In this document: in pieces, positions 1 through 28,260 of the stretch
Numbering within the stretch: position 1 is the first letter of the stretch
Layout of the letters: each line of letters opens with the position of its first letter
Program-made: the position numbers and the translations under genes
Notes under the pieces: generated by a model
Seen by the model: the letters and a program-made list of their open reading frames with translations, nothing else
Told to the model about the DNA's origin: nothing
The model's database searches: none
Assembly: GCA_023418705.1 (NCBI GenBank)
Contig: JAEZYZ010000062.1
Coordinates: 17,875-81,874 of the forward strand
Source of the DNA: Pseudomonadota bacterium
GTDB lineage: Bacteria; Myxococcota_A; Polyangia; Polyangiales; Polyangiaceae
Direction of reading: 5' to 3'
DNA: 64,000 bases

Positions 1-272
1 GTCGCCTGCAGCAAGCGATCCAGCCAGAAGAGCACCGGGTAGTCCGTAGGCCGGAGCTCCCCCAACTCGTCTTGATACATCGACGCGGGCTCCGGCTGGT
101 CGTAGCCGCTGCGGCGATGGACGGGGATGGACGCGGCTGCGTCGGCGAACGAGGCGTAGACCCCGCGGAACAGATGACACTCGGTGGCAGACTGGAAGTA
201 ACGGCGATACCGCTCCTCGAGCAGGTTCTTGACCACCGGGAGTTGGCGCAATTTCTCGATGCGGTTCGACAT
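1..272 (-). CDS. hypothetical protein, 5-prime fragment (gene continues past the left edge)
   Basis: ATG at 272-270 opens a frame that stays open to nt 1 (MSNRIEKLRQLPVVKNLLEERYRRYFQSATECHLFRGVYASFADAAASIPVHRRSGYDQPEP...). Third codon positions are GC-rich. It starts 33 nt downstream of the hydrolase stop on the same strand. It is absent from the ORF track because it has no in-window stop. The FxGVYxSFxxA...GYD start recalls small methyltransferase-like proteins of sugar clusters, from memory only. Confidence 0.35.
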   Translation of the reverse strand, partial: MSNRIEKLRQLPVVKNLLEERYRRYFQSATECHLFRGVYASFADAAASIPVHRRSGYDQPEPASMYQDELGELRPTDYPVLFWLDRLLQA

Positions 273-305
273 GGTCGGATACGTTCGGTCGGGGCGATGG
301 CGGCG

Positions 306-1238
306 TCAGCGGGAGGTCGCCGCTCGCGACTCCGGCGCCACCAGTACGGAGAAAAACTCTCTCAAGCGGCGGGTGTACTCGCCGGTGGCCACTTTAGCGT
401 AGTCGCCATGGGCGGCCGACGGAAAAACGAGCAGCTGCTTCGGCTCTTCGGCAGCCGCGTAGAGGCGCTGCACCATGCTCGGCAGCACGACCTCGTCGCG
501 TGCTCCGCCGATGACCAGCACGGGGCGCGGAGCGAGCTTCGAAACCACGCGCACCGCCTTGTCCTCGTCGGGCTCGTAGCCGAGGAGCCGCTGCGACCAC
601 AGGGCGGGCAGCACGCTGAATGGCCCCCACCGCCGATACTCCCAGCGCGTTTGTTCGGTGACGTCGGCGGGGGTCCCGGCCAGCACGACGGCGCGCAGCC
701 GGGGGTCGACCGCGGCGACCTGGGCTACGATGTAGCCGCCCATGGAGAAGCCGAAGACGCCGATGCGCTCCGCGTCGACGTCGGGTCGACGTGCGATCCA
801 ATCGGTGGCGGCCCGGAGCGCCTCGCGCTCGGCGGCGCCCCATTCCACGACGCCGTCACTGTGACCGTGGCCGGGCCAATCGAACGCGAGCACCCCGTAG
901 CCGGCGTCCGCCAAGATACGGATTTCGGGGCCGAGCTCGCTGCGATCGCCCATCGAGCCGTGCGTGAGGATCACCGCGGCGCCGTTGTTCGAGGGCGCGA
1001 ACCACCCGCTGAGCTCGGAGCCGTTCGCGACCGGGATGCGGACGTCCTCGAGCCGCGAGACGCCCACGCTCGAACGATCGTGCTGCAGCGTGCCCCGGGG
1101 CGGGTGCAGGTAGGAACGTTCCTTGAGGTAGATGCGAACCCCCATCAACAGCCACACCCCGAGCGGCGCCGCCCCCAGCGTCAGCAGGGCGCCGCAGACC
1201 CAGCGCCTGCGGCTGAAGAGCTTCGAGAGGGCCTTCAA
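306..1238 (-). CDS. membrane-anchored alpha/beta-fold hydrolase
   Basis: 310-aa ORF with a basic N-terminus followed by a hydrophobic helix (WVCGALLTLGAAPLGVWLLMGV). HG motif (ILTHGSMGD), nucleophile elbow GFSMGG and a C-terminal His (SAAHGDY). The TTG start overlaps the TGA stop of the upstream megasynthase (TTGA). Confidence 0.8.
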   Translation of the reverse strand: MKALSKLFSRRRWVCGALLTLGAAPLGVWLLMGVRIYLKERSYLHPPRGTLQHDRSSVGVSRLEDVRIPVANGSELSGWFAPSNNGAAVILTHGSMGDRSELGPEIRILADAGYGVLAFDWPGHGHSDGVVEWGAAEREALRAATDWIARRPDVDAERIGVFGFSMGGYIVAQVAAVDPRLRAVVLAGTPADVTEQTRWEYRRWGPFSVLPALWSQRLLGYEPDEDKAVRVVSKLAPRPVLVIGGARDEVVLPSMVQRLYAAAEEPKQLLVFPSAAHGDYAKVATGEYTRRLREFFSVLVAPESRAATSR

Positions 1239-4200
1239 GGCGCGTCGACCTTGACGTACTTCGAAGGGTTCTGCGGGTGCGGTACGAACCAGGCGGGGTT
1301 GCCGCTGCGGTCACGCCCGAGCCGAGCGCCTGGAACCGGAGGCGCCTTCGGGTCGAAGAGGATCCGCTCCGGCTCCGAACGTCCCGGCAAGAACTCGGCC
1401 GCTTGAAGCTCAGCGACGGCGTCCTTGAAGGCCTGAACGATGGCAGCGACGTCCGCATCCGAATGCGCGGTGGTCAAAAAGCACGGGAACAGATCGAGGA
1501 TGTGGATGCCCTTCTCGCGCAGCGAATAAAACAGCAAATCTCCGTAGGGTTGCTCCTGCTTCCAGAACACCTTCCACAGCGACGCGAAGTGCCGGATTTC
1601 TAGCGGAGCGCCCACGGCTTCGAAGTGTGCGTTCAGCTCGGCGGCGAGCGCGGAGGTCTTCGCGTTGAGGGTCTCCTGCAACCTGGGCCCTTGCTCCTTC
1701 AAGTGAAGGAGCGCCGCCTTGGCCGCGGCGAGCGCCAGCGGGTGACGGCAGAAGGTCCCGGCGAAGTAGGTCACGCCGACCGTGGGCTTCGAGTCATCCC
1801 CGTACTGCCAGTGGCCCCCGTCGAGCGCATCCATGTACGGCCGCTTGCCGGCGATCACGGCGAACGGGTAGCCGCCGCCGATGACCTTGCCATAGCTGGC
1901 GAGGTCTGCCTGCACGCCAAAGTACGCTTGCGCACCACCCGGGTGGCAGCGGAAACCGGTGATGACCTCGTCGAAGATGTACACGGCGCCGGAGCGGTCC
2001 GCGATCCCCCTGAGCTCGTGCAGGAAGTCGCGAGGCTGGAGGTCCGGGCGGCGGCTCTGCACCGGCTCGACCATGATGGCGGCGAGCTCGTCGCCGCGTG
2101 CACGTAGGATCTCGAGCGCCTCGGGGCTGCCGTACTCCAGCACGAGGACGTTCTGTGCGGTGGAGGGGAGGATGCCCGGCGCCGCGGGGACCGCCCGGAG
2201 CTTCTTGGTTCCGCGCACGATCACCTCGTCGAAGATGCCGTGGTACGAGCCATTGAAGATGGCGATCGTGTCCCGACCAGTGACCGTTCGCGCGATGCGC
2301 ATGCAGCCCATGACCGCTTCGGAGCCGGTGTTGCAGAACGCGGCGCGCTCGGCCCCCGTCATGTCACAGATGAGGTCGGCCACCTCCGCCGCCAGCGGCG
2401 TCATGGGACCGATTTCGTGGCCGATGTCGATCTGCCGGATGACGGCCTCGTTGACGAAATCCGGCTGCCAGCCGAACAGGTTGCAACCAAACCCGCTCAG
2501 CGTGTCGATGTACTCGTTGCCATCCAGGTCCCACATGTGGGAGCCCTTCGAGCGCTCGATCACGATCTGATAGACGAGCTCCTTGAGTTGCGGCCGAAAG
2601 CCGGTGACCGCTCGGGGATCGGAGAGCCGCGAGCGGTGCTCCTGCGTGTACTCCTTGGAGCGGCGGGTGCGCGCCGTGTAGCGCTGGATGAAGGCATCCA
2701 GGCGCGCGCGCTGTCCCGGCGTCAGATCGTCGGTGCCGCTGGTGTTGATGCGCGCGATGGCGCCGAACGCCTTCTTGACGTCGTACGTCCTTTGGTATTC
2801 GGTCTCGCTCGAAGCGGCGTCGACGCCGTTGCTCGGCGCGGCCGGCGCCGCGGCAGCGGCCGGCGCTGCCGGCTGGAGAGCTGGCGCTGGCGCCTGGGGT
2901 TGGGCGACGGCAACGCTGGCAGGGGCCGAAACCGCGGGCGCGCTGGCAGACCGCCCCGCCAAGAGCTGCAGCTGCTGCTGCATCAGCAGCAGCTGTTGGT
3001 CGATGACGCGCTGAAGGTCACCGGCCGGACCGGCGACGATGGGCGCTGGGACGAGCGCCGCCGGTGCGACGGCGACGGGCGCTGCGGCGGTGATGGGCGC
3101 CGTGGCGGCCGCGGGCGCAGCGGTCGCTGCCGGCGGGGCTTGGGGATCCGGCGGTAGTTGTTGGTCCATGTGGTCTCCCAATCTGTCCAAACTCGGGAAC
3201 GCTTCCATCAGCTCACGGAACGTGATCTTGACGCGGAAAGTCTTTTGCAGCTGCTGCGCGACCTGGGTCAGCGACAAAGAGTCCAGCCCGAGCTCGAGGA
3301 ACGTGGCGTGGACGTCAACGTCACGCATCTCGAGCCCGGAAATGTCTTCGAAGACCTCGCGCAGCTGAGCCACCAGGCGGTCCTTGCGACCGGCTGCGGC
3401 GGGGGCGGATTCGGGCATGGGAACACTCATTGGAAACGTTGGGATGGGTTCGATCGGTAGTGCCGTCCCGGCGCCGTTCGAGGCGGGGGCCGGTTGGGGG
3501 AGGAGGTTGCCGTCAAGGGCCTGCGCGGGCCTGTCGGACCTCGGCAGCGGGTCGAGCCAGTAGCGCTTGCGCTCGAAAGGATACGTCGGCAGCGGTACGC
3601 GGCGGCGCCGCTCATCCGCGAAGAGGTTGCTCCAGTCGACCTCCACGCCGGCGCTCCAGAGCTGTCCGAGCGCGGCGAGCAGCGCCTTCCACTCCCCGTC
3701 GACGCTGCCCGAGTCCCCGAGCGTCGGGGTCGCCACCAAGCGGTCCCGGAGCTTCGATTGCTGCCGCGCCAGCGCCGTCAGGGTCGCCCGAGGGCCCACC
3801 TCGAGCAGAACGCGGTGCTCGTCCTTCAAGAGCTCCGCCGCCGCCTCTCGGAAGCGGACGCGCTCGCGCAGGTGCTTGGCCCAGTAGCGAGGATCGCAGG
3901 CCTGCTCCTCGGTGATCCAGGTCCCGGTCAGGGTGGAGACGAAGGGCACCTGCGGCGCCGACAGCCGGACCTTGCCCACCATCTCCGCGAAGGGCTCGAC
4001 CACCGGGTCCATCATGGGCGAATGGAAGGCGTGGGAGGTCAAAAGAGCACGGCACACCGTCCCCTCGGCTTCGAGAGCGCGCTGCAGCTCCGCCACGGCC
4101 TCGGTCGAGCCGGCAACGACGCAGAGCGAGGGCCCGTTGTCCGACGCGATGGCGAGGTCTTTTGGCAGCCGTCGTTCGAGGTCTGCGGCCGGCAGCCGCA

Positions 4201-7200
4201 CGGACAGCATGGAGCCGCCAGGGAGGTCTTGCATCAGACGCCCGCGGGCCGCCACCAGCGACAGGGCGTCCGGCAGCGACAGGACCCCCGCCAACACCGC
4301 GCTGACGAACTCGCCGATGCTGTGCCCGATCATGGCGGACGGTCGAATGCCCCACCCGAGCAGCACCTGCGCGACGGCGTACTCCACGACGAACAGCGCG
4401 GGCTGAGTGAACGCCGTGTTGCGGAGCGCCTCGGCGGCGTCGTCGGTCTGCGTGTCGGCGGGGAAGAGCAGCTCGCGCAGGTCCCGTCCGAGATCGGGCT
4501 TCAGGCGCTCCGCGCAGTCATCGACCACCGCTCGGAACACCGGATCGACGGTGTACAGGCCGAGCCCCATGTTGGGTGCCTGCGCGCCCTGCCCCGGGAA
4601 GAGGAACGCCACGTTGGCGCGCCCACCGTCGTAGCTGCGCGTCGCCGCTCGCTGAGGCTCCGACAGCTGGGCGATGGCCTCGGCGTGGCTGCTCGCGACG
4701 ACGAAGCGCCGCTCACGAAAGCCGCGCCGGCCCAATGCCAGCGTGTAGGCCACATCGGCGAGCGCGACGTCACCAGCGCCGCGCAGGTGTTCGGCGAGGT
4801 TCGTCGTTGCCTGGTTCAGCGCGTCGCGGGAGCGGGCTGACAGCAGCAACAGCTCACACGGACGAACGCTGGGTGTCGTCGCCGGTGCCGGCGGTTCCTC
4901 GAGCACGACGTGTGCGTTGGTCCCGCCCACGCCAAAGGAGCTCACCCCGGCGCGCCGGGGCCCGTCGCCGCGCGGCCACTCCGACAGCCGGTCGGCGACG
5001 TAGAACGGGGTGGACTCGAAGCCTATCTTGGGGTTCGGTCGGCGGAAATGCGCGGTCGGGGCGATGACCCCGTCGCGGAGGCAGAGCGCGGTCTTGATCA
5101 ACCCCGCGGCGCCCGCGGCCGACACGATGTGTCCGATGTTGCTCTTGACCGACGAGATGGCGCAGTACTGCCGATCCTGGGTGGTCTCGCGGAACGCCTC
5201 GGTCAGGGCCTCGACCTCGATGGGGTCGCCGAGCGGGGTCGCCGTCCCGTGCGCTTCGACGTACCCGATGGAGCGCGCGTCGATCCCGGCGACCTCTTGG
5301 GCCATCCGGACCACCGTGGCTTGCCCCTCAACGCTGGGCGCCGTGAAGCTGGCCTTGTTGCCCCCGTCGTTGTTGGCGGCAGCGCCGCGGATGACGCCGT
5401 AGATCGTGTCGCCGTCGGCCTGCGCGTCCGCCAAGCGTTTGAGGACGACGACGGCGACCCCGTCGTTGAAGGTGGTGCCCGTCGCGTCGGCGTCGAAGCT
5501 GCGGGTGTAGCCGTCGGCCGACAGCATGGCGCCTTCCTGATACAGATACCCGCTGCGCGGTGGGCAGGTCAGGGAGGCTGCGCCCGCGATGGCGACGTCA
5601 CACTGACCCGTTCGAAGGCTCCAAAAGGCCTCGACCACAGCGACCAGCGAGGTCGAGCACGCGGTGTGCACACTGACGGCGGGACCCCGAAGGTTCAACT
5701 TGTGCGCGATCCGCGTCGCGACGTAGTCCTTCTCGTTTTGCAGGAGCAGGCTGATGTCGTCCAGCGGACCCTGGTACTCCGGGCGCGACAAGATGTGATA
5801 GGTCAGGTAGCTGTTGCTGTAGACGCCCGCGTACACGCCGACGAGGCCGTCGATGGTCTCCGGGGCGTAACCGGCGTGCTCGAGAGCCTCCCAGACCACC
5901 TCGAGCATCAACCGATGCTGCGGGTCCAGGACCCGTGCTTCGCCCGGCGTGATGCCGAAAAAACCTGCGTCGAACTGGTCGAACCCCTCGACGATGCCGC
6001 GCGCCTTGACGTAGTTCGGCGCGTTCACCAGGTCCTTCGGGAGGCTCGGGTCCAGCTCGTCGTCGGAGAAGCGGTGCAGGGCCGCCTCGCCGCTTTTCAC
6101 GAGCGACCAAAAGGCGTCGACGTCATTGGCGCCGGGGAAGCGGCCCGCCATCCCTACGATGGCGACGTCGTCGGCGCCTTCGGTGCGCCGCCGCTGGCGA
6201 GTCCGCTGCTGCGCACCGGCGGCGCCGCTGCGGCGCGCCAGATAGCCGTCGAGATCGCGCGCGGACGGGTGCTGGAAAAAGCGGGCTACCGGGACGTCGA
6301 GCCCGTATTGCTCACGCAGGCGGGTCAGCACCTTCATCGCCAGCAGCGAGCTGCCACCGAGCTCGAAGAAATTGTCCTCGGCGCCGATCGGCTCGAAGCC
6401 CAGCACCTCCGCAAAGATCGCGCACACCGCGCGCTCGATGTCGGTACTCGGCGGCACCGGTGGCGAGCCCGTGTCCGGCCGCTCGCGCGGCGGCGCTGGC
6501 AGCGCCTTGCGATCGAGCTTGCCGCTCGGGTTGATCGGCAAGGCGACCAACCAGACGAAGTGCGCGGGCACCATGAACTCCGGCAAGCTGCGTGTCAGCC
6601 AGCCGCGAAGCTCGCCGCCGGTCGGGCGCTCCGCCTCGTCGCCGACCAAGTAGGCGACGAGGCGATCGTCGCCTTGGTCATTTCGCAAAGCTACCGCCGC
6701 CTGGGTCACGGCCGGATGGGTGAGCAGCACGGCCTCGATCTCGCCGAGCTCGACGCGGAAGCCGCGCAGCTTGACCTGGAAGTCGATGCGGCCGAGGTAT
6801 TCGACCTGCTGGTCGTGCGTGACGCGCGCCAGATCGCCGGTCTTGTAGAGGCGGGCGCCCGGCTTTGAAGAAAATGGATCGGGGACGAACCGCTCCGCCG
6901 TCAGCTCCGGGCGGTTGAGGTAGCCGCGCCCGACCTGAGCGCCGCCGATGTACAGCTCACCCGGGACGCCGACGGGCAGGGGGCGCAGCCGCTCGTCCAA
7001 GATGTGGATCTGAGTATTGGCGACCGGCTTCCCGATGACGACCCGCGCCGACCCGGGCTCGCAGTCCCAGTAGGTGACGTTGACGGTCGCTTCGGTGGGT
7101 CCGTACAGGTTGTGCAACGAAGCGCCGAGCTTGGAGAAAAACGCCTCCATCAGCTCTGGCGTCAACGCCTCGCCGCCGCAGGTGACCCTCCGCAAGCTCG

Positions 7201-8719
7201 AGCAACGCGTGGCCTCGGGGTGCGCCAGAAAGACGCGCAGCATCGACGGGACGAAGTCGATCACCGTGATGCGTTCACGCTGGATCGTCTCGATCAGGTA
7301 CTCGACGTTCTTGTGGCCGCCCGGTTCGGCCAAGACGATCTGCGCACCTGCCAACAGTGGCCAGAACAGCTCGCAGATCGAGGCGTCGAAGCTGTAGGGC
7401 GTCTTTTGCAGGAAGCGATCGGCGGGGCTGAGCTGGTAGTGGTGCTGCATCCAGAAGAGGCAAGCGACCAGCTGGCGATGCTCGATCATTCCCCCCTTGG
7501 GGCGACCGGTGGAGCCGGAGGTGTAGATCACGTAGGCGAGATCCGCGGGAGACACCGTGACGGACGGCGGCGACTCCGCAGCGCCCTGGGTGAGCTCGGG
7601 ATCGTCGAGCAGCAGCACGCGCCCAGCGAAGCTGCTCGGCAGCTTCGGCGCGGTCCGGCTCTGCGCCAAAACGAGCCGCGCCGCCGTGTCCTCCAGCATG
7701 AACTCGAGGCGCTCCGCAGGGTAGTCGGGATCGAGGGGAACGTAGGCGGCGCCCGCCTTCAAGATGGCCAACAGCGCGACCATCATCTCGAACGACCGCT
7801 CGACGCACAGCCCCACCAGCGTCTCGCGGCCGACCCCCTCGCGCAGCAGGACGTGGGCGAGCTGGTTCGCGCGAGCGTCGAGCTCGGCGTAGCTCAGCGA
7901 CCGGTCGCCGGAGAACACCGCGGGCGCTTGCGGGGTGCGCCGCACCTGAGCCTCGATCAGGTCGTGCAGGCATGCCGACGGGTAGTCGAGCTCAGCGGCG
8001 TTCAACCCTGCGATGAGCTCGGCGTCTTTGGGCTCCGAGAGGTCGACGTCGCAGAGCGCCAGGTCGGGGTTGGTCGCAAGCGCGGTGAGGGCCGCGCGCA
8101 GGTGCCGGAGCGCGCGCTCGGCGGCGTCGCGGCTCAGCCGCTCGGGGTCGAAGCGGGCGCAGAGCTGCTCGAAATCCGGGGTCAACTCGAGGCGCAGGGG
8201 GGCGCCCTCCGATGGCGTGGCATCGCCTCCGCCGAACGCCACCACCGTCTGGCAAATCGGCACGCTATCGGGCCACTCGAGCCAGGCCCGCAGCGCTTGC
8301 AGATCCGGGCGCTGCTGCGAGCGCTGCGCGCGATCGGCGTCGATCGCACGCAGCCAGTCGCCCGCCGTCGCCTGCGGCAGGACGGACACGGGCGCCGGCA
8401 GCAGCGTCGAAGGCGCGTCCAGAGACACGCTGCCGAACAAGACGTCGGGCTCTCGCTGGTGGCGGCTCGCTACGAGCGCCCAGGCGCCCTCGAGCAAGCT
8501 CGACGGCTGAATTCCCAGGGACTGCACGGCGGAGCGCAGGGCGGCGCCCTGCTCGGAGGTCGGCAGATCCACCGACGTGGGGGCGGTGCACTGCGACGTT
8601 CGGCCGGGGGCCGCGTCGTCGAGCAGCGGCGTGGGCTGGCTGAAGCCGCGAAGGCGCTGGACCCAGTAATCCCGGCTCGTGCCTTCGGAGCTGGGCGCGG
8701 CGAGAAACGTCTCTGTCAC
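1235..8719 (-). CDS. hybrid NRPS-PKS: condensation C-lobe only / A / PCP / KS / AT(malonyl-type) / ACP / class-III aminotransferase
   Basis: 2494-aa ORF with a GTG start preceded by GAGGA. Domains by motif:
- Condensation-like C-terminal lobe without HHxxxDG (aa 1-235, nt ~8015-8719).
- A domain ([67 protein letters not shown]; nt ~6485-7972).
- PCP (FFELGGSS; nt ~6230-6457).
- KS (TACSTS, EAHGTAT, SNIGH; nt ~4895-6172).
- AT (GHSIGE, HAFHS; nt ~3620-4618).
- ACP (LGLDSLS; nt ~3170-3388).
- Ala/Pro/Gln-rich linker (nt ~2825-3157).
- GSA-aminomutase-like PLP aminotransferase (SGSEAV, DEVITGFR, SYGKVIGGG; nt ~1400-2617). Confidence 0.95.
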   Translation of the reverse strand: MTETFLAAPSSEGTSRDYWVQRLRGFSQPTPLLDDAAPGRTSQCTAPTSVDLPTSEQGAALRSAVQSLGIQPSSLLEGAWALVASRHQREPDVLFGSVSLDAPSTLLPAPVSVLPQATAGDWLRAIDADRAQRSQQRPDLQALRAWLEWPDSVPICQTVVAFGGGDATPSEGAPLRLELTPDFEQLCARFDPERLSRDAAERALRHLRAALTALATNPDLALCDVDLSEPKDAELIAGLNAAELDYPSACLHDLIEAQVRRTPQAPAVFSGDRSLSYAELDARANQLAHVLLREGVGRETLVGLCVERSFEMMVALLAILKAGAAYVPLDPDYPAERLEFMLEDTAARLVLAQSRTAPKLPSSFAGRVLLLDDPELTQGAAESPPSVTVSPADLAYVIYTSGSTGRPKGGMIEHRQLVACLFWMQHHYQLSPADRFLQKTPYSFDASICELFWPLLAGAQIVLAEPGGHKNVEYLIETIQRERITVIDFVPSMLRVFLAHPEATRCSSLRRVTCGGEALTPELMEAFFSKLGASLHNLYGPTEATVNVTYWDCEPGSARVVIGKPVANTQIHILDERLRPLPVGVPGELYIGGAQVGRGYLNRPELTAERFVPDPFSSKPGARLYKTGDLARVTHDQQVEYLGRIDFQVKLRGFRVELGEIEAVLLTHPAVTQAAVALRNDQGDDRLVAYLVGDEAERPTGGELRGWLTRSLPEFMVPAHFVWLVALPINPSGKLDRKALPAPPRERPDTGSPPVPPSTDIERAVCAIFAEVLGFEPIGAEDNFFELGGSSLLAMKVLTRLREQYGLDVPVARFFQHPSARDLDGYLARRSGAAGAQQRTRQRRRTEGADDVAIVGMAGRFPGANDVDAFWSLVKSGEAALHRFSDDELDPSLPKDLVNAPNYVKARGIVEGFDQFDAGFFGITPGEARVLDPQHRLMLEVVWEALEHAGYAPETIDGLVGVYAGVYSNSYLTYHILSRPEYQGPLDDISLLLQNEKDYVATRIAHKLNLRGPAVSVHTACSTSLVAVVEAFWSLRTGQCDVAIAGAASLTCPPRSGYLYQEGAMLSADGYTRSFDADATGTTFNDGVAVVVLKRLADAQADGDTIYGVIRGAAANNDGGNKASFTAPSVEGQATVVRMAQEVAGIDARSIGYVEAHGTATPLGDPIEVEALTEAFRETTQDRQYCAISSVKSNIGHIVSAAGAAGLIKTALCLRDGVIAPTAHFRRPNPKIGFESTPFYVADRLSEWPRGDGPRRAGVSSFGVGGTNAHVVLEEPPAPATTPSVRPCELLLLSARSRDALNQATTNLAEHLRGAGDVALADVAYTLALGRRGFRERRFVVASSHAEAIAQLSEPQRAATRSYDGGRANVAFLFPGQGAQAPNMGLGLYTVDPVFRAVVDDCAERLKPDLGRDLRELLFPADTQTDDAAEALRNTAFTQPALFVVEYAVAQVLLGWGIRPSAMIGHSIGEFVSAVLAGVLSLPDALSLVAARGRLMQDLPGGSMLSVRLPAADLERRLPKDLAIASDNGPSLCVVAGSTEAVAELQRALEAEGTVCRALLTSHAFHSPMMDPVVEPFAEMVGKVRLSAPQVPFVSTLTGTWITEEQACDPRYWAKHLRERVRFREAAAELLKDEHRVLLEVGPRATLTALARQQSKLRDRLVATPTLGDSGSVDGEWKALLAALGQLWSAGVEVDWSNLFADERRRRVPLPTYPFERKRYWLDPLPRSDRPAQALDGNLLPQPAPASNGAGTALPIEPIPTFPMSVPMPESAPAAAGRKDRLVAQLREVFEDISGLEMRDVDVHATFLELGLDSLSLTQVAQQLQKTFRVKITFRELMEAFPSLDRLGDHMDQQLPPDPQAPPAATAAPAAATAPITAAAPVAVAPAALVPAPIVAGPAGDLQRVIDQQLLLMQQQLQLLAGRSASAPAVSAPASVAVAQPQAPAPALQPAAPAAAAAPAAPSNGVDAASSETEYQRTYDVKKAFGAIARINTSGTDDLTPGQRARLDAFIQRYTARTRRSKEYTQEHRSRLSDPRAVTGFRPQLKELVYQIVIERSKGSHMWDLDGNEYIDTLSGFGCNLFGWQPDFVNEAVIRQIDIGHEIGPMTPLAAEVADLICDMTGAERAAFCNTGSEAVMGCMRIARTVTGRDTIAIFNGSYHGIFDEVIVRGTKKLRAVPAAPGILPSTAQNVLVLEYGSPEALEILRARGDELAAIMVEPVQSRRPDLQPRDFLHELRGIADRSGAVYIFDEVITGFRCHPGGAQAYFGVQADLASYGKVIGGGYPFAVIAGKRPYMDALDGGHWQYGDDSKPTVGVTYFAGTFCRHPLALAAAKAALLHLKEQGPRLQETLNAKTSALAAELNAHFEAVGAPLEIRHFASLWKVFWKQEQPYGDLLFYSLREKGIHILDLFPCFLTTAHSDADVAAIVQAFKDAVAELQAAEFLPGRSEPERILFDPKAPPVPGARLGRDRSGNPAWFVPHPQNPSKYVKVDAP

Positions 8720-9746: not shown

Positions 9747-10018
9747 CAGGCCATCCCCTTGTTTGTGCTTTTGAAATCGAGGACCACAGTCCCAGGTATC
9801 AGTTTTGCGCCCGCACGTCTAGAACGCTCTTCGGTGGCTTTGGCGAGCTCGCCTCTCGCTCTTGCCATTGCCATTGCCCCATCCGGGCGTCGCGCGAGTT
9901 TCAGGCACAGAAGAAACGAAGGGCGCCGCGCCGTTCTTACGTTTGGGGTGCGGTCCTATGACGCCGAGCCAACTCCCCGGTGCTATAATGATCGATTTGG
10001 CTTCTTCGCGGGGAAATG

Positions 10019-11221: not shown

Positions 11222-11241
11222 CGGGTGCTCCCGGCGGCCGA

Positions 11242-11841: not shown

Positions 11842-12128
11842 GCGAAATTCCATCGTGGCTGATCGGGCGGATGAAAACATGGAATCGCGGCGTGGGCAAT
11901 CGCCCGGAGGGCGCGCCGGAGCCGATCGTTCGGGCGGTCTCGAGCTCCCGAGCCGGGTCGGGGAACCGGCCCGCCCGCGCTCATCCGGAGGCGGCTCCGC
12001 GCCGCCCGAGAGCGCGCCCGAGCATCACCCGAGCATCAGGGGGATCGCTTTGCCTCGCCTTCGAGCGTGATCTAGCGTTTACTGTTTTGGGGGCACGCGT
12101 CTCCCGCCACCCTGAGCCCGACCCATCG

Positions 12129-13313: not shown

Positions 13314-13322
13314 GCGCGGGGC

Positions 13323-15046: not shown

Positions 15047-15135
15047 GGCTGGCGACCGTGATCATGACGTCAGCGCGGGTCGACGGCAACGGTCTCCTTG
15101 GCGACGGCAGCGCGATGAGCGCTGCTTGATTTTCG

Positions 15136-15430: not shown

Positions 15431-15583
15431 ACAATCTCCGAGCCAGACTGGTCGACACAGCTCGCTGTCTCGGTCGTGAAATCCGTTTTTCACCGACTCG
15501 AGGTGGGCCGAAGGCCCTGATGGTCTTCCTGTGCTGATCTCCGATCGAGACCCTCGACGCACCTCGCTGTCTCAGCGAGGCGC

Positions 15584-20137: not shown

Positions 20138-23100
20138 GGGATGACCTCGATACGGGCGGCAAGGGTCCGGGCGCCTCTTCGAGAGCGCGCTTCAGGTGCG
20201 CCGTCAGCACGCTCACGTTTGGCTCCAGGATCAGGCTATCGTGGGTGCCGGGGACCTCGACGATCTCGAGCCCCGGCAAGAGGCCGTCCCAACCGAGGGT
20301 CGGCCCGACATGTTGAAACACCTCCGCGACGCGGTCGGCGCGGAACAGGATCACGCGACCTTCGTAGCGGCGCGCGCGGTAGCGCGCCGAGGCTTCGTAG
20401 AAGCTGCGCGTCAGCTGCAGCTCTCGGAGCTCCAGCGGCAGCGGCTGCTGCTGGCTGAGGTAGAAGCGGAGCTTGAGCTCGGCGGACAGCTCGTTCAGGT
20501 GACGGGACCACTTGGCCCGGCTGCGCTCGGACAGGTACGCGGTGCCGCCCTGGAGCAGCTTGGTGATCCGATCGGCGAGGGCGGGCTTGCGCGGGCGGGT
20601 CGAGGGCTCGAACGTGTCGAACAGCACGACGAGCCGCACCTGCTTGCCCTGGGCGATCAGCTGGTGGGCCATCTCGAGCGCCACCACCCCGCCCCCGGAA
20701 TAGCCGCCGAGCACGTACGGTCCCGAGTGGTCGATTTGCGATAGCTGCTCGACGTACAAACGGCCCATGTCCTCGATGGTCTGAAGGGGCGTCTCCCCGT
20801 TCACGCCCAGCGCCTGCAGCCCGTAAAACGCCTGATTCGAGGGGAGCCGCCGCGCCAGGTCGTAGAAGTTCAACACGTTGCCGCCCGCGCCGTGGACGCA
20901 GATGAACGGCGGTCGTTCCGGGCTGCCCTTTTGGATCAAGACCAGGGGGTTGAAGCCGTCGTGGGCTGCGGGACGCCCGTTCGGGCGCTCCGGCGCGGCG
21001 CGGCCGTTCTTCGGGACCTCGAGGGTCTTGCCGAGCCGCTCGCGCAGGATGTCGGCGCACTGCTCGATGGTCGGCGCCTGGAAGAGCACGGCGAGCGAGA
21101 GATCGACCCCGTGCGTCTTCTTGATCCGCGAAAATAGCCTCACCGCGATCAGGGAATGCCCGCCGAGCTCGAAGAAGTTGTCGTGAATGCCGACGCTGGA
21201 GACGCCGAGCAAGGCGCACCACATCTCCGCCAGGCTCCGCTCGATCTCGTCGCGCGGGGCATCCTCCCGCTGCGCTTCCGCCGTCGGGGCGCTGGGGCGC
21301 GCCTCGACGCGCGCTGGCTTCAGATCGGCGGCGAGGGTCTCGAGCGGAACGGGCGTGGCGACGACTTCGCCGCGCCAGCCGCTTCGCAGCACGCGATCGA
21401 CGACCCGGAGGCCCTCTTCCAGGGTGAGCCCCTCCTCGAACCAGCGCTCGAGCGGCGAGGGGGCCGTGGCGGGGGCAGCTGGGGCGGTGAGCGCGCGGGC
21501 GGGCATGCTCTTGGTCACATAGCCGTCGATGGTGGCGACGACCTTCCCGTCGAGGTCCGCCAGCTGCAGGTCGAAGACGGCGACGCCGTCGGACCCGGGC
21601 GCCGATCTCAGCCGCACGTGGCTCATCAGCTCGGCGGGCAGCGGGGCGCGGATCGTCAAGCGCTCGTACGAGAGGGGGATCCGCAGCAGGTCTGCCGCGT
21701 CGCCCGTGTCCGCCAGCGAGAAGGCGAACCCCGACGCCATGTCGAGCAGGCCGGGGTGCAGCGCGTAGTTCGCCTGCTCCCCGCGGAGCTCCTCGGGCAG
21801 ACGCAAGAGGGCGAGCGCCTCGTCCGTCCCGAAGTGCATCTCGCGGATCACCTGCCAGTGCCGACCGAGGGCCAGGTGGCGGTCCTGAGGCAGCTCCTGG
21901 CGCTCCTCGAAACGCTGGCTTCGGTGGCCGCAGCGGCGGCGGATGGCGTCGAGATCGAGCGGCGCCGGCGCCGGCGCCTGGTCGACGCGCAGGCTCCCTC
22001 GAGCGTGCTCGACCGCGCTCGGCTCGCCCTTCCCACGGCTCGAGATGGTCACGGTCACCGTCGCCGGCTCGGAGCGCACGTCGGTCACCACCTCCAGCTG
22101 CCGCTCGGCGCCGTCCGGGATCGACAGCGGGCGCGCAAACAGCAGATCGCTGAGCTCGAGCGCGGCGGCGTCGGGCAAACCGAGCGCCCGGGCGCCCGCA
22201 GCGCGAACGATCTCCACGAAGCCGGTGCCGGGCAGCACGGCCGTGCCACCCCGCACGCGGTGCTGATCCATCACCCACAGCGCGCGCGGGGAGTAGGTAG
22301 CCCGAAACCCGAGCTGGTCCATGCGCTCGCGGTGCAGGCGGCCTAGCAGCGGGTGTCCCACGACGTCACCTTCGGCGGGCGCCTCGACGCGCGAGAGCGC
22401 GCGCGCCGCCATCCCCACCTCCTTCCAGACGCCGAAGCCCAGGCTGAGCACGCGCGTCCCGGCTTCGGAGTAGCGCCGGGCGAGCTCCCGTCCGAGCGCG
22501 TTGAGGTAGCTGTTGGCGGCGGCGTAGTCGATCTGCCCGGGAGGGCCGAGCACCGCGCTCGTCGAAGAGATGAGCAGCAGCAGCGCGGGCGGATCTTGGG
22601 CGAGCGCCTCGACCAGGTGGCGGCTGGCGTCGAGCTTCGGGGCGAGGACAGCGCGGGCCGCGGCGCGCGTCTTCACCGCGAGGGGCGCGTCGTCGAGGAC
22701 GCCGGCCGCCTGCACGACGACGTCGACGCGACCGAAGCGGGCCTTCACCCGGTCGAGCAGGGCATCGGTCTCCGCCCGGGAGGCGAGGTCGCCACTCTCG
22801 ACGACCACCTCATGGCCCGCTGCGCTGAGCTCGAGCAACAGCTTGAGCTTGCCGGCGAGCGGATCGCTCGAGCCGAGCTCCTCGAGCACCTCGGCCCAGT
22901 GTTCTCGCTCCGGAAACGGATGGCGTGTGACAAGGACCAGGCGAGCGTTCAGCGTGTCCGCGAAGTGCTTGGCCAAGGTGCTGCCGATGCCGCCGAGGCC
23001 GCCAGCGATCAGGACGATGGGCTCGGGGGGCAGGGGAGCGCCGGCGTCCGAAGCCGGGGCGTGGGTGAAGATCTGGGCGAGGCGCCGTCCGTCGCGTTCG

Positions 23101-26100
23101 GTCGTGACCTCGTGAACCTCCGACGCCGCGGCCTCGAGCAGGACGGAGCGCGCGGTGGCCTCGCTGTCTTGCAGGGCCGGCACCTCGAACAGGACGGCCC
23201 TGACCTCCGGCAGCTCCTTGGGGATGACCCGCACCGGGCCCTCCGCCAGCGCCGCCAGGGCGCCCGAGCTGCCGCCGCCGTCGTCGAAGACCCCCGAGCA
23301 AGCCACCAGCAGGCGCGTGTCGGGATGCAGGCTCTCGCGGGCGAGCGCTTGAGCCAGGTGCAAGAGCGAATAAAAACAGCGGTCGAGCGCGGGCTCGAGG
23401 GGAGCTTCGGGGGATCGCAGCTCGGGGGACAGGCAGAGCGTGTGCACGATCCGGGCGGGGACTCCGGCGTCGCTGACGACGTGCTGAAGCAGCGTCTCGT
23501 AGTCTTCCGGATGGGCGAGCCTCAGCTGATACCGTCCCCGTTCGAGCCGCTCGGTCGTGGCTCCGGGCGTCACGATCGCGGGTTTTATACCGCGCGCGCG
23601 CAGCTCGAGCTCGAGCGCCCGGCAGAGCGGCCCTTCGTCGGCGAACAGCAGCCACACCTCGGCCGGATCGAAGGTCGTGGCTCCGCGATCCGCTTCGGAG
23701 AAGCTCGGCTGGAAAAACCATTTGGAGGCGTCGGGCTCCCGCCGAGCGGAGGGCGCGTCCTCGGCGGCGCCAAAGTAGCCCTTGCCCGGCTCGATCCAGT
23801 AGGGCTCGTGCTCGAAGGGCGTCGCCGGCAGCGGAACGATCGTCCGCGGGGTGTTCAGCAAGCGCTCGAAATCGACGCTCCCACCGTGGGCTGCGATCCG
23901 GCCGACGCTCGTGACCAGGGTCGTCACATCCGATGAGCGATCCTTCGCGTGCGGAGAGACCGGGACCACCGGGCGCTGTTGGTTCGCGCGCAGGGTGGAG
24001 GTCAGGGTCTGGCCTGGACCGACCTCGACGAAGATCGCGTCCGGGTGACGCTCGAGCACACCGGCGACCCCGGCGGCGAAGCGAACGGTCTCTCTCAGGT
24101 GACGGACCAGGTAGCGCGCGTCGATCTCTGCCGCTTCGGGGAAACGGCCGCTCAAGTTGGACACGAAGGGGATGCGCGGCGCGTGAAAGGTCACGCCGGT
24201 CAGCGCCGCCGCGAACTCATCGAGGATCGGATCGAGCAGCGGCGAGTGGGCGGGCACGTCGATGCGCAGGCGCGTGGGGTGCACGTCCTGGGCGAGCAGA
24301 TCGCGCTCCAGGCGCTCGAGCGCCTCCGAGCTGCCGGAGACGACGCAGAGGTCGGGGGCGTTGATGGCGGCGATCGACAGCTCGCCCTCGAGCAAGGGGG
24401 CGAGCTGTTCACTCGGCATCGGCACCGACAGCATGCCGCCGCGCCGAACCTTCTCGAACAGGCGACCCCGGCAGCAGACGACGGCCAGCGCTGCGCCCAG
24501 CTCCAGGACCCCGGAAAGGTGGAGCGCGGCGTACTCCCCCAGCGAGTGGCCGATCAAGGCCGCCGGGCGCACTCCCCAGTGATCGAGCAGGCGCGCGTAG
24601 GCGATCTCGATCGAGAACAGGGCCGGCAGCGCCAGGGAGGGACGCTCGAGCTCCCGCGCCGCGGCCGATACGTCCCCATCCACGAAGAGCAGGGGACGAA
24701 GATCGATGTTTTCTTGCCGCTCGAGGACGCTCAAGCATTCGTCGAGCGCGTCGCGAAAAACGGCTTCGCTCTCGTAGACCTCGCGGGCCATGTTGGGGTA
24801 TTGCGCGCCCCCGCCCGGAAACACGAACACCACGCTAGCGGCTTCACCTGGGGCGTGCACATCGAAGACGCGCGCCGTGTCCGGCCGGGCCAAGAGCTCA
24901 GCGGCCTCCGACGAGCTCTTGGCGGCGAGCACCCGCCGGTGAGCGAAGCGGCGCCGGCCGCGGAGCAAGGTCGAGCTCACCTCGGACAGCACCAGGTCCG
25001 GATGCTCGGCGAGGTGCGCGCTCAGGCGCGCGGCGTACTCGTCGAGGGACCCCTGGCTGCGCGCCGCGAGCAACAAAAGCTGCGGCTTGTCACTCGCGGC
25101 GGGTGACCGCCGCCGCGGCGCTTCTTCGAGGATGGCGTGCGCGTTGGTGCCGCCGACGCCGAGCGAGCTGACGCCGGCGCGTCGTGGCCCGGTGCCCTTC
25201 GGCCACGGCGCCCGCTCGTGCACCACGTAGAACGGGCTCGCCGCGAAGTCGATCTGCGGGTTGGGTCGCTCGAAATGCAGGGTCGGGGCGAGCTGCTCGT
25301 GCTCCAGCATTTGAGCGACCTTGATCAAGCTCGCGACGCCCGCCGCGGTGTCCAGGTGGCCGATGTTCGACTTGACCGACCCGACGCCGCAGTAGCCGCG
25401 GTCGTCGTTCGTGCGGGAGAAGGCGCGCGTGAGCGCCGTCAGCTCGATGGGATCGCCCACCGGCGTCCCGGTGCCGTGGCATTCGACGTAGGAAATGTCG
25501 CGGGCAGTTAGCCCCGCCACCTGGAGCGCTTCGACCACGCACTCCGCCTGACCATCGACCGATGGTGCCAGGTAGCCGATCTTGCGGCTGCCGTCGTTGT
25601 TGACCGACGTGCCCTTGATGAGCGCGTGGATGTAGTCACCGTCGGCGATGGCGTCCGCCAGGCGCTTCAGGACGACGACCCCCGCACCGGATCCGAACAC
25701 GGTTCCTTTGGAGCGCTCTTCGAAGGGGCGGCAGTGGCCGTCGGGCGAGAGGATTTCACCCTCTTCGTAGAAGTAGCCGCGGCCGTGGGGCAGCTCGAGC
25801 GTCACGCCCCCGGCCAGCGCCACGCCGCATTCTCCGGAGAGCAGGCTCTGGCAGGCCATGTGAACGGCCACCAGCGAGGTCGAGCAGGCGGTCTGGACGT
25901 TGATGGACGGCCCCTTCAGATCGAGGCAGTAGGAGACCCGGGTGGCCAGAAAGTCCTTGTCGTTGCCGGTGTGCCGGACGAGGAACAACCCCATCGACTG
26001 CATGAGGTCGGGGTTGGTGAACAGGTGGTAGGGCAGGTAGGCGTTCATGCCAGAGCCGGCGAACAAGCCGATCGGGATCGCCGCGGCCTCGGGCAGGATG

Positions 26101-26444
26101 CCGGCGCTCTCGAGCGCCTCCCAGCACACCTCCAGGAAATGGCGGTGCTGCGGATCCAGCACGCTGGCTTCGCGCGGAGAGAAGCCGAAAAACTTGGGAT
26201 CGAACAGCGAGAGGCCGTCGATCGGCGCCGTCGCCCTCACGTAGCGAGGATCGGTGAGGTGCGCGTCGGGCACGCCGGCGCGGCGCAGCGCCTCGGCGCT
26301 CGGGAACTGGATGCTCTCCACTCCGTCGCGCAGGTTCGCCCAGAAGCGGAACACGTCCGGCGCTCCTGGGAACCGAGCTGCCATGCCCACGATGGCGATG
26401 TCCGTACTCTGTAGTTGATCGTCGTCGACGTCGTATGCGCCCAT
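20121..26444 (-). CDS. type I PKS: KS / AT / KR / DH / PCP-type carrier / thioesterase
   Basis: 2107 aa, ATG at 26444. Domains by motif:
- KS (TACSTS, ECHGTGT, SNIGH; nt ~25125-26405).
- AT (GHSLGE, with VPAHS where HAFH/YASH normally sits; nt ~23865-24833).
- KR ([13 protein letters not shown] in [16 protein letters not shown]; nt ~22395-23732).
- DH ([23 protein letters not shown]; nt ~21501-22361).
- Carrier (FFELGGHS; nt ~21030-21251).
- TE (GYSGGG, PGTHDS; nt ~20175-20957). Confidence 0.95.
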
Positions 26445-26508
26445 TCAGCGTCCTGATCCAGCAAAGGACCGGTCGGTAGCGACTGCGGGCTGGACCGCAG
26501 CCGCCGTG

Positions 26509-27927
26509 TCAGTACGCGTTGCTGCGAACTTTGCGCCCGAACACGGTCAAGAAAATGATGCGCAGATCCAGTCCGAGGTCCCAGTTCTGGATGTAGTAGA
26601 GGTCGTGCTCGAGGCGCTTCTCCATCTTGTCGAGCGTCTCGGTCTCTCCGCGCCAGCCGTTCACCTGCGCCCAGCCGGTGATGCCCGGCTTGACCTTGTG
26701 GCGCAGCATGTAGCGGTAGATCTGGGAGCGGTAGAGCTCGTTGTGGGCGACGGCGTGCGGCCGCGGACCGACGATCGACATCTGCCCTGCCAGCACGTTG
26801 AAGAACTGCGGCAGCTCATCGAGCGAGGTGCGCCGCAAGAACGCGCCGAGCGGGGTGATGCGGCTGTCGCCCTTCTTGGCCTGACGTACCGTGTCGCCGT
26901 CTTCGCAGACGGTCATGGTACGAAACTTCAGCACGGGGATTTCTTTGCCGTTCAGGCCGTAGCGCCGCTGAACGAAAAATACCGGCCCCGGCGACGTGAG
27001 CTTGATCAGGATGGCGATGACGACCATCGGCAGGCTGATCAGCAGCAGGATCAACGTCCCGAGCACGATGTCTTCCAGCCGCTTCACCCACCCGCCGAGA
27101 CCATGAAACGGGGTGTGTTGGATCGCGACCACGGGAACGTCCCCGAGGCTCGACCATTGCGCTTGCAACAGATCGAACACGAAAAAATCGCCCACGACGA
27201 AGACCGACGCGGTCGTGTCCGACAGGCGCTGCAACAGGTCGTTGATCCGAGACTCGGCGCGCAGGGGCAGCGCGATGTAGACGTAGTCGACCGGGTTGTC
27301 CTTCATGTGGACGAGCAGCTCGTCGAACCCACCTTTGAACTCGGCGTATTGCTCGCTCATCTTGTGGCGGCGCGACTCGATACGATCGTCGTAGAACCCG
27401 ACTACCTGCATACCGACAGCGGGATCGGCCATGTGCTCGCAAAGGCGCTCGGCCGCGCGGGTCATGCCCAGGATGGCGACGGTGCGCGAGTTGCGGCCGC
27501 GCCGGCGCAGCTCCTGCAGAAAGAAGCGGACCGCCAGCCGCCAGACGGCCAGCAAGTTGGGGGTCAGCAGGAACCAGCCCACGGTGATGACGCGTGAGAA
27601 GTTCTCCGTTTGTTTGGTCGCGAACCCCAGAAACAGCAAGACTGGAATGACGCAGACCCACGTCAGGACCACCTGGGTCAGCTCACTGACCACCGGATCT
27701 CCCCGCCAGGCGCGGTAGAGGCCGTTCAACTCGGACGCCAGGTAGAAGGCGATCACGGCCACGCAGCTGGCGACCGTGTCCTCGAGCCGCCAGCCCTGGT
27801 CGTATCCCCAAACCAGGGCGTACAGGCCGACGACGATGAAAATGGCGTCTGTGATGCGCTGCCCCATCGTGATGAGGGGCGCGTAGGTTTTCAGGAAGCC
27901 GTCTTTGATGCCGCGCTGCTCAGTCAT
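26509..27927 (-). CDS. polyprenyl-phosphate hexose-1-phosphate transferase (WcaJ/WbaP-type priming glycosyltransferase)
   Basis: N-terminal TM helices, then the C-terminal bacterial sugar transferase domain: SPGPVFFVQRRYGLNGKEIPVLKFRTM, SLDELPQFFNVLAGQMSIVGPRP, KPGITGWAQVNG. ATG at 27927 preferred over the TTG at 27942. Confidence 0.9.
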   Translation of the reverse strand: MTEQRGIKDGFLKTYAPLITMGQRITDAIFIVVGLYALVWGYDQGWRLEDTVASCVAVIAFYLASELNGLYRAWRGDPVVSELTQVVLTWVCVIPVLLFLGFATKQTENFSRVITVGWFLLTPNLLAVWRLAVRFFLQELRRRGRNSRTVAILGMTRAAERLCEHMADPAVGMQVVGFYDDRIESRRHKMSEQYAEFKGGFDELLVHMKDNPVDYVYIALPLRAESRINDLLQRLSDTTASVFVVGDFFVFDLLQAQWSSLGDVPVVAIQHTPFHGLGGWVKRLEDIVLGTLILLLISLPMVVIAILIKLTSPGPVFFVQRRYGLNGKEIPVLKFRTMTVCEDGDTVRQAKKGDSRITPLGAFLRRTSLDELPQFFNVLAGQMSIVGPRPHAVAHNELYRSQIYRYMLRHKVKPGITGWAQVNGWRGETETLDKMEKRLEHDLYYIQNWDLGLDLRIIFLTVFGRKVRSNAY

Positions 27928-28260
27928 CTGACACTCGTGCAACTTCGACCAAAGCGCGAGAAGTCGCTCACTCTTATCTACCGAAATCGGGGTCTGGGGT
28001 AAATAGTGGACTCACACCGGCACCTCGGGATTGTCTCGGATTCAGCTCCTTTTTGTTTCCCCGGTCTCGTGTCGACCTGGGGTCGGCCGGTCTCCGCCGG
28101 CCTAGTTCAAGCCGCGGCTTGGGCTTTGTTCTTCCTTTTTTCGCGCCGCAGCGCGGCCTAGCTAAATGCGCCCGGGCGCTCGGCGCCCGCGAAGAAACGA
28201 CCTCCGAGCGGATCGTTCACGATGGGACCGCGGCCTTGCCGTGTCGAGTTCGGGGTGGAC

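Follow-up and report, generated by a model that had tools for sequence, protein, structure and literature searches.

Organization of the locus

We examined a 64,000-nucleotide stretch of DNA from a bacterium of the Polyangiaceae (contig JAEZYZ010000062.1 of assembly GCA_023418705.1, positions 17,875 to 81,874; hereafter the window), in which three megasynthase genes are interleaved with genes for the assembly and export of a Wzy-type polysaccharide. The base composition of the window is ~68% GC. A first-pass annotation made from the sequence had described two minus-strand runs in which glycan and megasynthase genes are mixed, and its genes and domain orders were all confirmed: every open reading frame (ORF) that it named was present at the positions given below, was the coding frame by third-position GC content (GC3) and had its identity borne out by Pfam, NCBIfam and PDB matches. 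The spacers and both overlaps were re-measured and agreed as well.

The first run begins with a gene for a WcaJ-type polyprenyl-phosphate hexose-1-phosphate transferase (PGT; 26509–27942, minus strand; the public gene call starts at 27927). The protein has Bac_transf and CoA_binding_3 domains, scored 533 bits against the WcaJ model TIGR03023 (cutoff 411) and is of the WcaJ and not the EpsZ type (533 vs 135 bits). After a spacer of 64 nt follows a type I polyketide synthase (PKS) gene (20121–26444, minus strand), which by Pfam encodes a single ketosynthase (KS)-acyltransferase (AT)-ketoreductase (KR)-dehydratase (DH)-carrier-thioesterase (TE) module. This gene overlaps by 17 nt a nonribosomal peptide synthetase (NRPS) gene (15584–20137, minus strand) whose product combines Formyl_trans_N/C domains (Fmt), an AMP-binding adenylation (A) domain split by a TIGR04020 luciferase-like monooxygenase (LLM), and a peptidyl carrier protein (PCP). 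We refer to this PKS and Fmt-A(LLM)-PCP NRPS pair as Module A.

Two genes on the plus strand lie between the runs. The first encodes an EpsU-like membrane glycosyltransferase of family GT2 (12129–13313; Glyco_tranf_2_3; 464 bits against the EpsU model NF041865), and the second encodes a Wzy-type repeat-unit polymerase with an O-antigen ligase family fold (13323–14858), a multi-span membrane protein with at least nine hydrophobic segments that matched Wzy_C (39 bits, above the gathering score) and the Wzy_EPS model NF041870 (320 bits).

The second run, again on the minus strand, starts with a short OPX lipoprotein of the EpsY type (11242–11880; public gene call starting at 11841), a protein of 199–212 aa with Poly_export and SLBB domains, a signal peptide and a Cys lipobox that scored 156 bits against the EpsY model NF041843. 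An outer-membrane beta-barrel of the EpsX family, the partner of short OPX proteins, is encoded 20 nt further on (10019–11221); it scored 67 bits against NF041842, which is under the equivalog cutoff, and was assigned as a barrel from family matches, PF28089 being on record for the exact protein. The two genes thus stand in the order of a composite short-OPX/beta-barrel translocon. Following a gap of 272 nt, a UDP-glucuronate decarboxylase (UDP-xylose synthase, UXS; 8775–9746) matched human UXS1 over its full length (PDB 2b69, E = 1e-94, and 4gll; next-best fold 157 bits). The third megasynthase begins 55 nt beyond it (1235–8719), with ~250 aa of N-terminal sequence before an A-PCP-KS-AT-ACP-class III aminotransferase architecture (ACP, acyl carrier protein; Pfam and NCBIfam). 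Its gene overlaps by 4 nt that of a membrane-anchored alpha/beta hydrolase with one N-terminal hydrophobic helix (306–1238; Hydrolase_4/Peptidase_S15/S9), and a 33-nt spacer separates this from the start of a methyltransferase gene (1–272; 262 aa, running off the window; TIGR04325, 220 bits, cutoff 80). We refer to the hybrid megasynthase and its partners as Module B.

The first-pass annotation had described the runs as apparently co-transcribed. At the three short junctions, a scan of little power, with totals of 9 and 16 sites where chance predicts 10.3 and 9.2, found no terminator-like hairpins on the minus strand. The counts from the terminator and promoter scans were taken as not above those of shuffled sequence, so that they neither support nor refute co-transcription. 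The PGT–PKS spacer holds an AGGA motif and no hairpin with a T-run, and on sequence grounds co-transcription of the PGT–PKS–NRPS run is plausible. In the second run, the 272-nt gap (9746–10019) is the most likely site of a separate promoter.

Domains and predicted chemistry of Module A

The formyltransferase domain of the Module A NRPS carries an Asn-His-Asp triad (N92, H94 and D130) that was invariant in 14 homologues. Its A domain is in two parts (AMP-binding, residues 548–758 and 1122–1331), with the monooxygenase (Bac_luciferase, residues 776–1063; TIGR04020, 507 bits) inserted between core motifs A4 and A5, as in MtaG/MelG, and the protein has no condensation (C) domain. LgrA was the top PDB match for the NRPS as a whole. 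Alignment to GrsA, with position 278 read from the THLQCTPS motif, gave the A-domain code DILQLGVVWK, which is glycine-like by comparison with DILQLGLIWK, the code that we take to be the glycine reference.

In the PKS, the Cys-His-His triad of the KS is intact, the KR carries LDD and YAAAN motifs (B-type), the DH carries HPLLG and the TE carries GYSGG. The C-terminal carrier (residues ~1760–1770) has a PCP-like GGHSL motif and not the ACP-type LGxDS. The AT (residues ~725–735) has GHSLGE together with an atypical VPAH where HAFH/YASH is the usual specificity motif. Formyltransferase-A-PCP modules loaded with glycine pass N-formylglycine to a PKS in the oxazolomycin and conglobatin pathways (PMC4504003). 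The simplest Module A product would be an acyl unit of the 4-formamidobut-2-enoyl type that is primed with glycine, extended once, reduced, dehydrated and possibly oxidised. No cyclodehydratase of the CongE/OzmP type was found by Pfam among the enriched Module A neighbours in the flank ORF sample described below.

Module A is a conserved pair across bacteria

The NRPS architecture (~1520–1560 aa) had more than 1300 homologues at E ≤ 1e-50, with named examples from Myxococcota, Ramlibacter, Acidobacteriota and Planctomycetota, several of them called 'MelG-like'. A contig scan with the full-length NRPS alignment picked up a generic A-domain motif and yielded ~9 true full-length relatives; the unrelated NRPS loci that it returned served as our control set, and a metagenome scan keyed on the formyltransferase domain provided 80 further loci. 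Full-length orthologues of the PKS (36–58% identity) adjoined the Fmt-NRPS in 32 of 44 loci.

Each context that we opened individually contained an adjacent, full-length PKS orthologue. These were Myxococcus sp. Y35 (L008), a soil metagenome contig (L009), a Polyangiaceae metagenome-assembled genome (MAG; L010/L011), Ramlibacter tataouinensis (L092), a Sandaracinaceae MAG (L093), and loci of Agrobacterium, Agarilytica, a betaproteobacterium, Acanthopleuribacter, Roseovarius, Nioella and Ruegeria (L012–L019 and L024). The Roseovarius, Nioella and Ruegeria loci encode a PKS of 37–42% and a Fmt-A(LLM)-PCP NRPS of 42–44% identity to those of the window (tblastn, 97–99% coverage). In the literature we found no characterised product of the Module A cassette, and searches that included Phaeobacter locus tags gave only statements that it is unknown.

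Glycan genes are enriched beside Module A

We then compared the surroundings of Fmt-NRPS genes with those of generic NRPS genes, using loci of at least 15 kb, flanks of at most 10 kb and annotations propagated by tblastn. Of 44 Fmt-NRPS loci, 22 had one or more of the hallmark glycan genes (PGT, Wzx, Wzy, Wzz or OPX), compared with 1 of 53 generic NRPS loci (Fisher p = 1e-8). As the BLAST references had been drawn from the loci under test, we also scanned flank ORFs, sampled at random, directly against Pfam. Among 141 ORFs sampled from Module A flanks we found GT2 (11), GT1/GT4 (8), phosphopantetheinyl transferase (PPTase; 8), NDP-sugar epimerase (7), Wzx (5), PGT (Bac_transf; 4), exosortase (3) and Wzz (3). 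The most frequent matches among 130 ORFs from control flanks were MFS, ABC and HlyD transporters and tailoring enzymes; there were only two GT1 matches, and no GT2, Wzx, PGT or Wzz family had two members.

Several loci place the pair inside a recognisable assembly set. In the Sandaracinaceae MAG (L093), PGT, a 340-aa protein and the PKS lie on one strand, and OPX, Fmt-NRPS, Wzz, Alg14-like, Alg13-like, a 346-aa protein and an acyltransferase are encoded divergently; a metagenome locus (L143) repeats this order at 42–73% identity. Five others (L159, L115, L129, L128 and L164) are colinear and on the same strand, with the order GT2-Wzx-PKS-GT2-FmtNRPS-PPTase-Wzz-PGT-Wzy, a layout established by Pfam of representative flanks (Wzx as Polysacc_synt_3, Wzz/GNVR, a small PGT and a Wzy_C-like protein). 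Roseovarius sp. S4756, a cultured strain, has the pair flanked on one side by a Wzy_C-like gene and on the other by genes for a PPTase, a GT2, a P-loop kinase-like protein and a PGT.

The PGT of the window is 55% identical to that of L093, which adjoins the orthologous PKS, and 51–56% identical to the PGTs beside Fmt-NRPS genes in L165 and L143, indicating that an orthologous primer enzyme travels with the cassette. Wzx genes occur in many sister loci, and Wzz stands beside the cassette in L093, L143, the L159-type loci and L017.

Of the two nearest NRPS relatives that we inspected, L009 has exosortase, WecG and GT2 neighbours and L011 has no glycan neighbours. Exosortase (EpsH) genes beside Module A include the one in L009 (17508–19136) and those among the sampled flank ORFs, one of them fused to an Rce1-like domain; these neighbours hint at a link with PEP-CTERM/exosortase exopolysaccharide (EPS) systems. 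The best-named homologues of the window's Wzy and NRPS come from Polyangiaceae MAGs (56–59% identity), and the exact arrangement of the window was not found in the nearest relatives sampled. Since L009, L011 and the loci of the Wzy relatives all differ from it, the interleaving seen here (PGT-PKS-NRPS / Wzy-GT2 / OPX-barrel-UXS-Module B) is lineage-specific, while the association of Module A with glycan genes is general. The neighbourhood comparison that the first-pass annotation had proposed thus bore out the type of interleaving in distant taxa and not its precise form.

Module B belongs to a separate NRPS-PKS cluster

The starter of the Module B hybrid is an amino-acid A domain (TIGR01733, 479 bits), and its code, DACDTGLVNK, has no recognised specificity. 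Beyond the start of the window (L004, 10967–20743), the contig goes on with the rest of the methyltransferase gene and, on the opposite strand, a NorM-like MATE exporter, a TubC_N dock-C-A-PCP-TE NRPS and a C-A-PCP NRPS. Both A domains of these NRPS genes have DILQ-type (glycine-like) codes. Many homologues of the hybrid protein are fused to C-A-PCP, and the orthologues P0121, P0123 and P0124 (55–60% identity) all adjoin C-A-PCP NRPS genes and hydrolases.

The closest hybrid homologue, P0121 (60% identity), lies in L174 together with counterparts of the hydrolase (49%), the methyltransferase (57%) and both NRPS genes (49–59% across the set), and no glycan genes were found in that locus. This synteny in a locus free of glycan genes marks Module B as a self-contained NRPS-PKS line. 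Its predicted order would be A-PCP-KS-AT-ACP-aminotransferase, then C-A-PCP, then C-A-PCP-TE: the KS-AT-ACP-aminotransferase portion would make a beta-amino unit, two NRPS modules would extend it and the TE would release a small peptide containing a beta-amino acid. The first-pass annotation had tied all three megasynthases to the glycan locus; this holds for the PKS and Fmt-NRPS of the first run, whose link with glycan genes spans phyla, and not for the third megasynthase, which has a cluster of its own.

In two further relatives, L175 and L180, Acetyltransf_6 and GH44 genes come after a related Module B cluster. In L175 an EpsX-family barrel precedes Module B, on the same contig as an EPS locus with a 53%-identical Wzy; in L180 no EpsX gene was found beside Module B, the upstream gene encoding a different membrane protein. 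Adjacency of Module B to OPX or barrel genes thus recurred in only one of the three relatives examined, and from the contrast between L175 and L180 any tie of Module B to the export genes is possible but weak. We treat it as adjacency: most probably, Module B merely abuts the export genes. The hydrolase was also considered as a marker of Module A and rejected as such; its identity is 49% to the copy linked with Module B in L174 and 43% to the one linked with Module A in L009, and we therefore assigned it to Module B.

Interpretation of the locus

We consider it probable, with some reserve, that the region consists of two units: a Wzy-type glycan set with Module A built into it (Unit 1, ~8775–27942) and Module B (Unit 2, 1–8719 and beyond). 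Given the linkage of Module A to glycan genes across phyla, a glycoconjugate that carries, or is built on, a short amino-acid/polyketide unit is a reasonable reading of the Module A product. More tentatively, and with somewhat less than even confidence, we propose that the Fmt-A(LLM)-PCP and PKS cassette marks a phylum-spanning class of Wzx/Wzy polymers, in which the repeat unit or the terminus carries a thiotemplate unit of glycine and malonate that the PKS TE off-loads onto an undecaprenyl-PP-linked sugar.

In such a pathway, the NRPS would load glycine on its PCP, the N-terminal formyltransferase domain would N-formylate it and the embedded flavin monooxygenase might oxidise it. The single PKS module would then add one malonate (more if it is iterative), reduce and dehydrate the product, and the TE would off-load a short unsaturated acyl unit. 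We place this unit at the cytoplasmic face, on a sugar or repeat unit linked to undecaprenyl-PP, because the conserved genomic partnership suggests so; after flipping and polymerisation, the acyl-bearing unit would leave the cell through the OPX/barrel. Wzx, the Wzz/Wzc co-polymerase and PPTase, which are encoded in-cluster in other family members, would in this organism be encoded elsewhere in the genome. As attachment enzyme we consider three candidates, namely the TE, the membrane alpha/beta hydrolases that recur among these loci, and a conserved protein of 315–346 aa.

Genes for this last protein stand directly beside the cassette in L093 (6201–7223, between PGT and PKS), L017 (17480–18427), L162 (15224–16249), L012 and L015. 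The protein had no Pfam or NCBIfam match, and no homologue was found within the window.

Were the cassette product part of a glycan, a common gene pair that is at present labelled an orphan "T1PKS-NRPS" cluster would become a polysaccharide-tailoring or -building device, and the reading of thousands of genome-mined clusters would change. Carriers of the pair include marine roseobacters, soil myxobacteria, Acidobacteriota and Planctomycetota; it would then point to a so far unrecognised non-sugar constituent of environmental EPS and capsules, to a new off-loading chemistry from thioesterase to lipid-linked sugar, and to a hybrid polyketide-peptide-polysaccharide logic that lacks a characterised example. 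The proposal is directly testable, as cultured and genetically tractable carriers exist (Phaeobacter/Ruegeria, Roseovarius, Ramlibacter and Myxococcus).

Several observations weigh against this explanation of the region. About half of the surveyed loci have no glycan gene in their flanks, among them L008 and L011, the latter inspected fully on one side. The bias introduced by drawing the BLAST references from the test loci was only partly removed by the Pfam control, and counts of metagenome loci are not counts of independent evolutionary events. The closest homologues of the window's Wzy (53–59% identity) belong to ordinary EPS loci of Polyangiaceae MAGs, which carry Wzx, acetyltransferases and GH44 and no megasynthases. 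The window itself supplies the priming PGT, the Wzy polymerase and the OPX export protein of a Wzx/Wzy pathway, and Pfam searches of its other large ORFs together with tblastn found no Wzx, Wzc/Wzz or PPTase, in keeping with the first-pass annotation, which had reported the absence of a Wzx flippase and a Wzc-type co-polymerase there. On the chemical side, the isolated Fmt domain is nearer to ArnA (1e-19), FMT and sugar N-formyltransferases than to the LgrA F domain (6e-5), so its acceptor could be other than glycyl-PCP, and the VPAH motif makes the extender unit of the AT uncertain. No conserved, dedicated acyltransferase for the attachment step was found among the surveyed loci, and the cassette product was still reported as unidentified in 2016 (PMC5014874), our searches having turned up no more recent paper on it.

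Alternatively, the natural product could be the core and the sugars its decoration: Module A would make a small aglycone or lipid-like acceptor, which would receive sugars from the clustered GT2 and PGT and leave as a glycoside or glycolipid by Wzx/OPX export, and there would be no polysaccharide with an acyl unit. The roseobacter-type layout, with a GT2 gene immediately between PKS and NRPS, fits this view, a single KR-DH PKS module could iterate to give a longer chain, and the Collimonas carenaemin model couples lipid-carrier glycosylation with secretion (PMC8313283). We nevertheless judge it unlikely, since Wzy-like and Wzz-like genes, for polymerisation and chain-length control, stand beside the cassette in many loci, the product of one extension is predicted to be small and polar, and no condensation or ligase-type attachment enzyme was identified.

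A chance juxtaposition, in which all three megasynthases make free small molecules and EPS and metabolite genes merely share a variable region, would account for the loci where either module occurs away from glycan genes (L174 for Module B, L008 and L011 for Module A), for the megasynthase-free EPS loci of the closest Wzy homologues and for a window layout not seen elsewhere. It is distinctly improbable in the face of the strong enrichment of glycan genes in Module A flanks, of NRPS genes that lie between OPX and Wzz, or between Wzx and Wzz, in same-strand runs of distant taxa, and of the orthologous PGT that travels with the cassette. Finally, we rejected a joint assembly line of all three megasynthases with its product attached to the glycan, which is very improbable on domain logic and on separate occurrence in relatives: the three genes do share a strand within 27 kb, and hydrolases of one family go with both modules in different genomes, but Module A is equipped with an initiation module and a TE, and Module B with a starter A domain and, in the NRPS outside the window, a TE. 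The two are joined by no C domain or docking partner and were separate in every relative examined.

Other features of the window

The NorM-like MatE gene beyond the window start was considered as the missing Wzx and rejected on account of that likeness. The window ORFs that we scanned included no ABC-transporter or KpsC/S-type genes, and Rfam and tRNA scans of the window gave no matches.

Between the stop codons of the convergent Wzy and NRPS genes lies a gap of 725 nt. It contains, downstream of the NRPS gene, a hydrophobic ORF of 56 aa (14876–15046, minus strand; publicly called, at 21399–21569 of L001) whose membership in the unit is uncertain; its product has two hydrophobic stretches (MQKLLLLSIMFMALIIP...) and no family match. 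The same gap holds a terminator-like hairpin on the plus strand (15106–15126) and, at 15177–15573, two pairs of direct repeats (~40 nt at a spacing of 206–207 nt and ~35 nt at a spacing of 102–103 nt), which may represent a short intergenic repeat element.

Upstream of the PGT gene, a region of ~435 nt includes a 48-nt tract of C runs on the plus strand (28260–28307) that reads as G runs on the PGT-coding strand: GGGGGGGCTTGGGGTTGGGTTGGGCTTGGGCGCGGGATTGGGGTGGGG. Genes for a PhzF-family isomerase and a DUF4388-Ser/Thr kinase (28377–31603, minus strand) are directly upstream of the PGT run, with a terminator-like hairpin between them (29329–29350).

A full dTDP-rhamnose set extends over 31746–38707 (rmlB-like at 31746, rmlD at 36354, rmlC at 37229 and rmlA at 37808), broken by a Na/sulfate symporter and a 446-aa Cys-rich protein, and is followed by a GT4 gene (41733–42959) and a methyltransferase gene (43196–44167). 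These genes could supply the Unit 1 glycan. Further on, 55887–60318 encodes a polysaccharide deacetylase, an unusually long GlmS-like protein (740 aa, GATase and two SIS domains) and an ATP-grasp-like protein; a polysaccharide deacetylase and a PPTase are also found ahead of Module A, both in Ramlibacter and in three metagenome loci (L092, L152 and L160). At 53003–55784 (minus strand), a Trp_DMAT-family aromatic prenyltransferase adjoins a cytokinin-dehydrogenase-type FAD oxidase, which may form a separate small prenylated-indole cluster.

Comparison with known systems

Module B resembles the beta-amino modules of the iturin/mycosubtilin type, in which KS-AT-ACP and a class III aminotransferase are followed by an NRPS C-A-PCP; the starter here is an amino-acid A domain and not a fatty-acyl ligase. 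The delivery of an amino acid to a surface glycoconjugate by an adenylation enzyme and a carrier protein, as we consider for Module A, has parallels in Dlt, which D-alanylates teichoic acids, and in AlmEFG, which places glycine on Vibrio lipid A. Unlike Module A, neither is known to involve a PKS, formyltransferase or TE, and transfer relies on dedicated membrane enzymes, DltB and AlmG.

The glycan genes of the window resemble the EPS pathway of Myxococcus xanthus with its composite EpsY (short OPX)/EpsX (beta-barrel) translocon, the GT2, Wzy, OPX and barrel matching its EpsU, Wzy_EPS, EpsY and EpsX models. All four scores are under the equivalog cutoffs, the PGT is not EpsZ-type, the window lacks Wzx and an EpsV-type co-polymerase, and megasynthase genes lie in between.

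As loading modules, OzmO (oxazolomycin) and CongA (conglobatin) share with the Module A NRPS an N-terminal formyltransferase, a glycine-type A domain and a PCP that hands to a KS (PMC4504003), and LgrA shares the formyltransferase-A-PCP order. Module A differs from them, and from MtaG/MelG, in joining formylation and the monooxygenase insert in one module and in standing among glycan genes and not in an antibiotic cluster.

The first-pass annotation had held that glycan and megasynthase loci are normally separate, which was too strong: type I PKS genes, rkpA and wcbR, are known from rhizobial K-antigen and Burkholderia capsule clusters (PMC3908369). As in the window, a type I PKS lies there inside a cluster for the biosynthesis and export of a surface polysaccharide, the comparison being one of gene context. 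Those clusters follow an ABC-transporter (Kps-type) route, their PKS is thought to act on the lipid moiety and they have no NRPS, whereas the PKS of the window has a TE, an NRPS loading module and PGT/Wzy/OPX partners.

Another parallel, of polysaccharide assembly with a hybrid product, comes from Collimonas arenae, where the PKS-NRPS product carenaemin needs a Wzy-dependent locus for a sugar repeat unit (PMC8313283). In that model the peptide core is attached to a lipid-linked sugar before export, and the synthetase includes a KS-AT-aminotransferase module like that of Module B. It differs from the window in using two separate chromosomal loci and another multimodular synthetase, with no Fmt-A(LLM)-PCP/PKS pair.

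The roseobacter loci with Module A correspond to a conserved hybrid PKS/NRPS cluster of that group (Martens et al. 2007; described in PMC5014874 and PMC4062626), whose product was left unidentified. This cluster shares with the window the KS-AT-KR-DH-CP-TE PKS adjoining the Fmt-A(LLM)-PCP NRPS (CP, carrier protein), and it has glycosyltransferase and PPTase genes beside the pair. In the window, by comparison, there is no GT2 gene between the pair and no PPTase, the order is PGT-PKS-NRPS, the EpsU-like GT2 lies ~2.3 kb from the NRPS gene on the opposite strand, and the partners are myxobacterial EPS-type genes (EpsU, Wzy_EPS, EpsY and EpsX). The published accounts of the roseobacter cluster (PMC5014874 and PMC4062626) make no mention of flanking Wzx, Wzz, PGT or Wzy genes, and the systematic embedding of the Module A family in Wzx/Wzy loci is, as far as we searched, not spelled out in the literature. 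The statement in the first-pass annotation that the arrangement matches no described pathway was overstated, both because this PKS/glycosyltransferase/NRPS/PPTase cluster has been noted since 2007 and because the Collimonas product needs a Wzy locus. The window thus holds a new, rearranged representative of a cluster family that earlier work had noticed and that is still uncharacterised.

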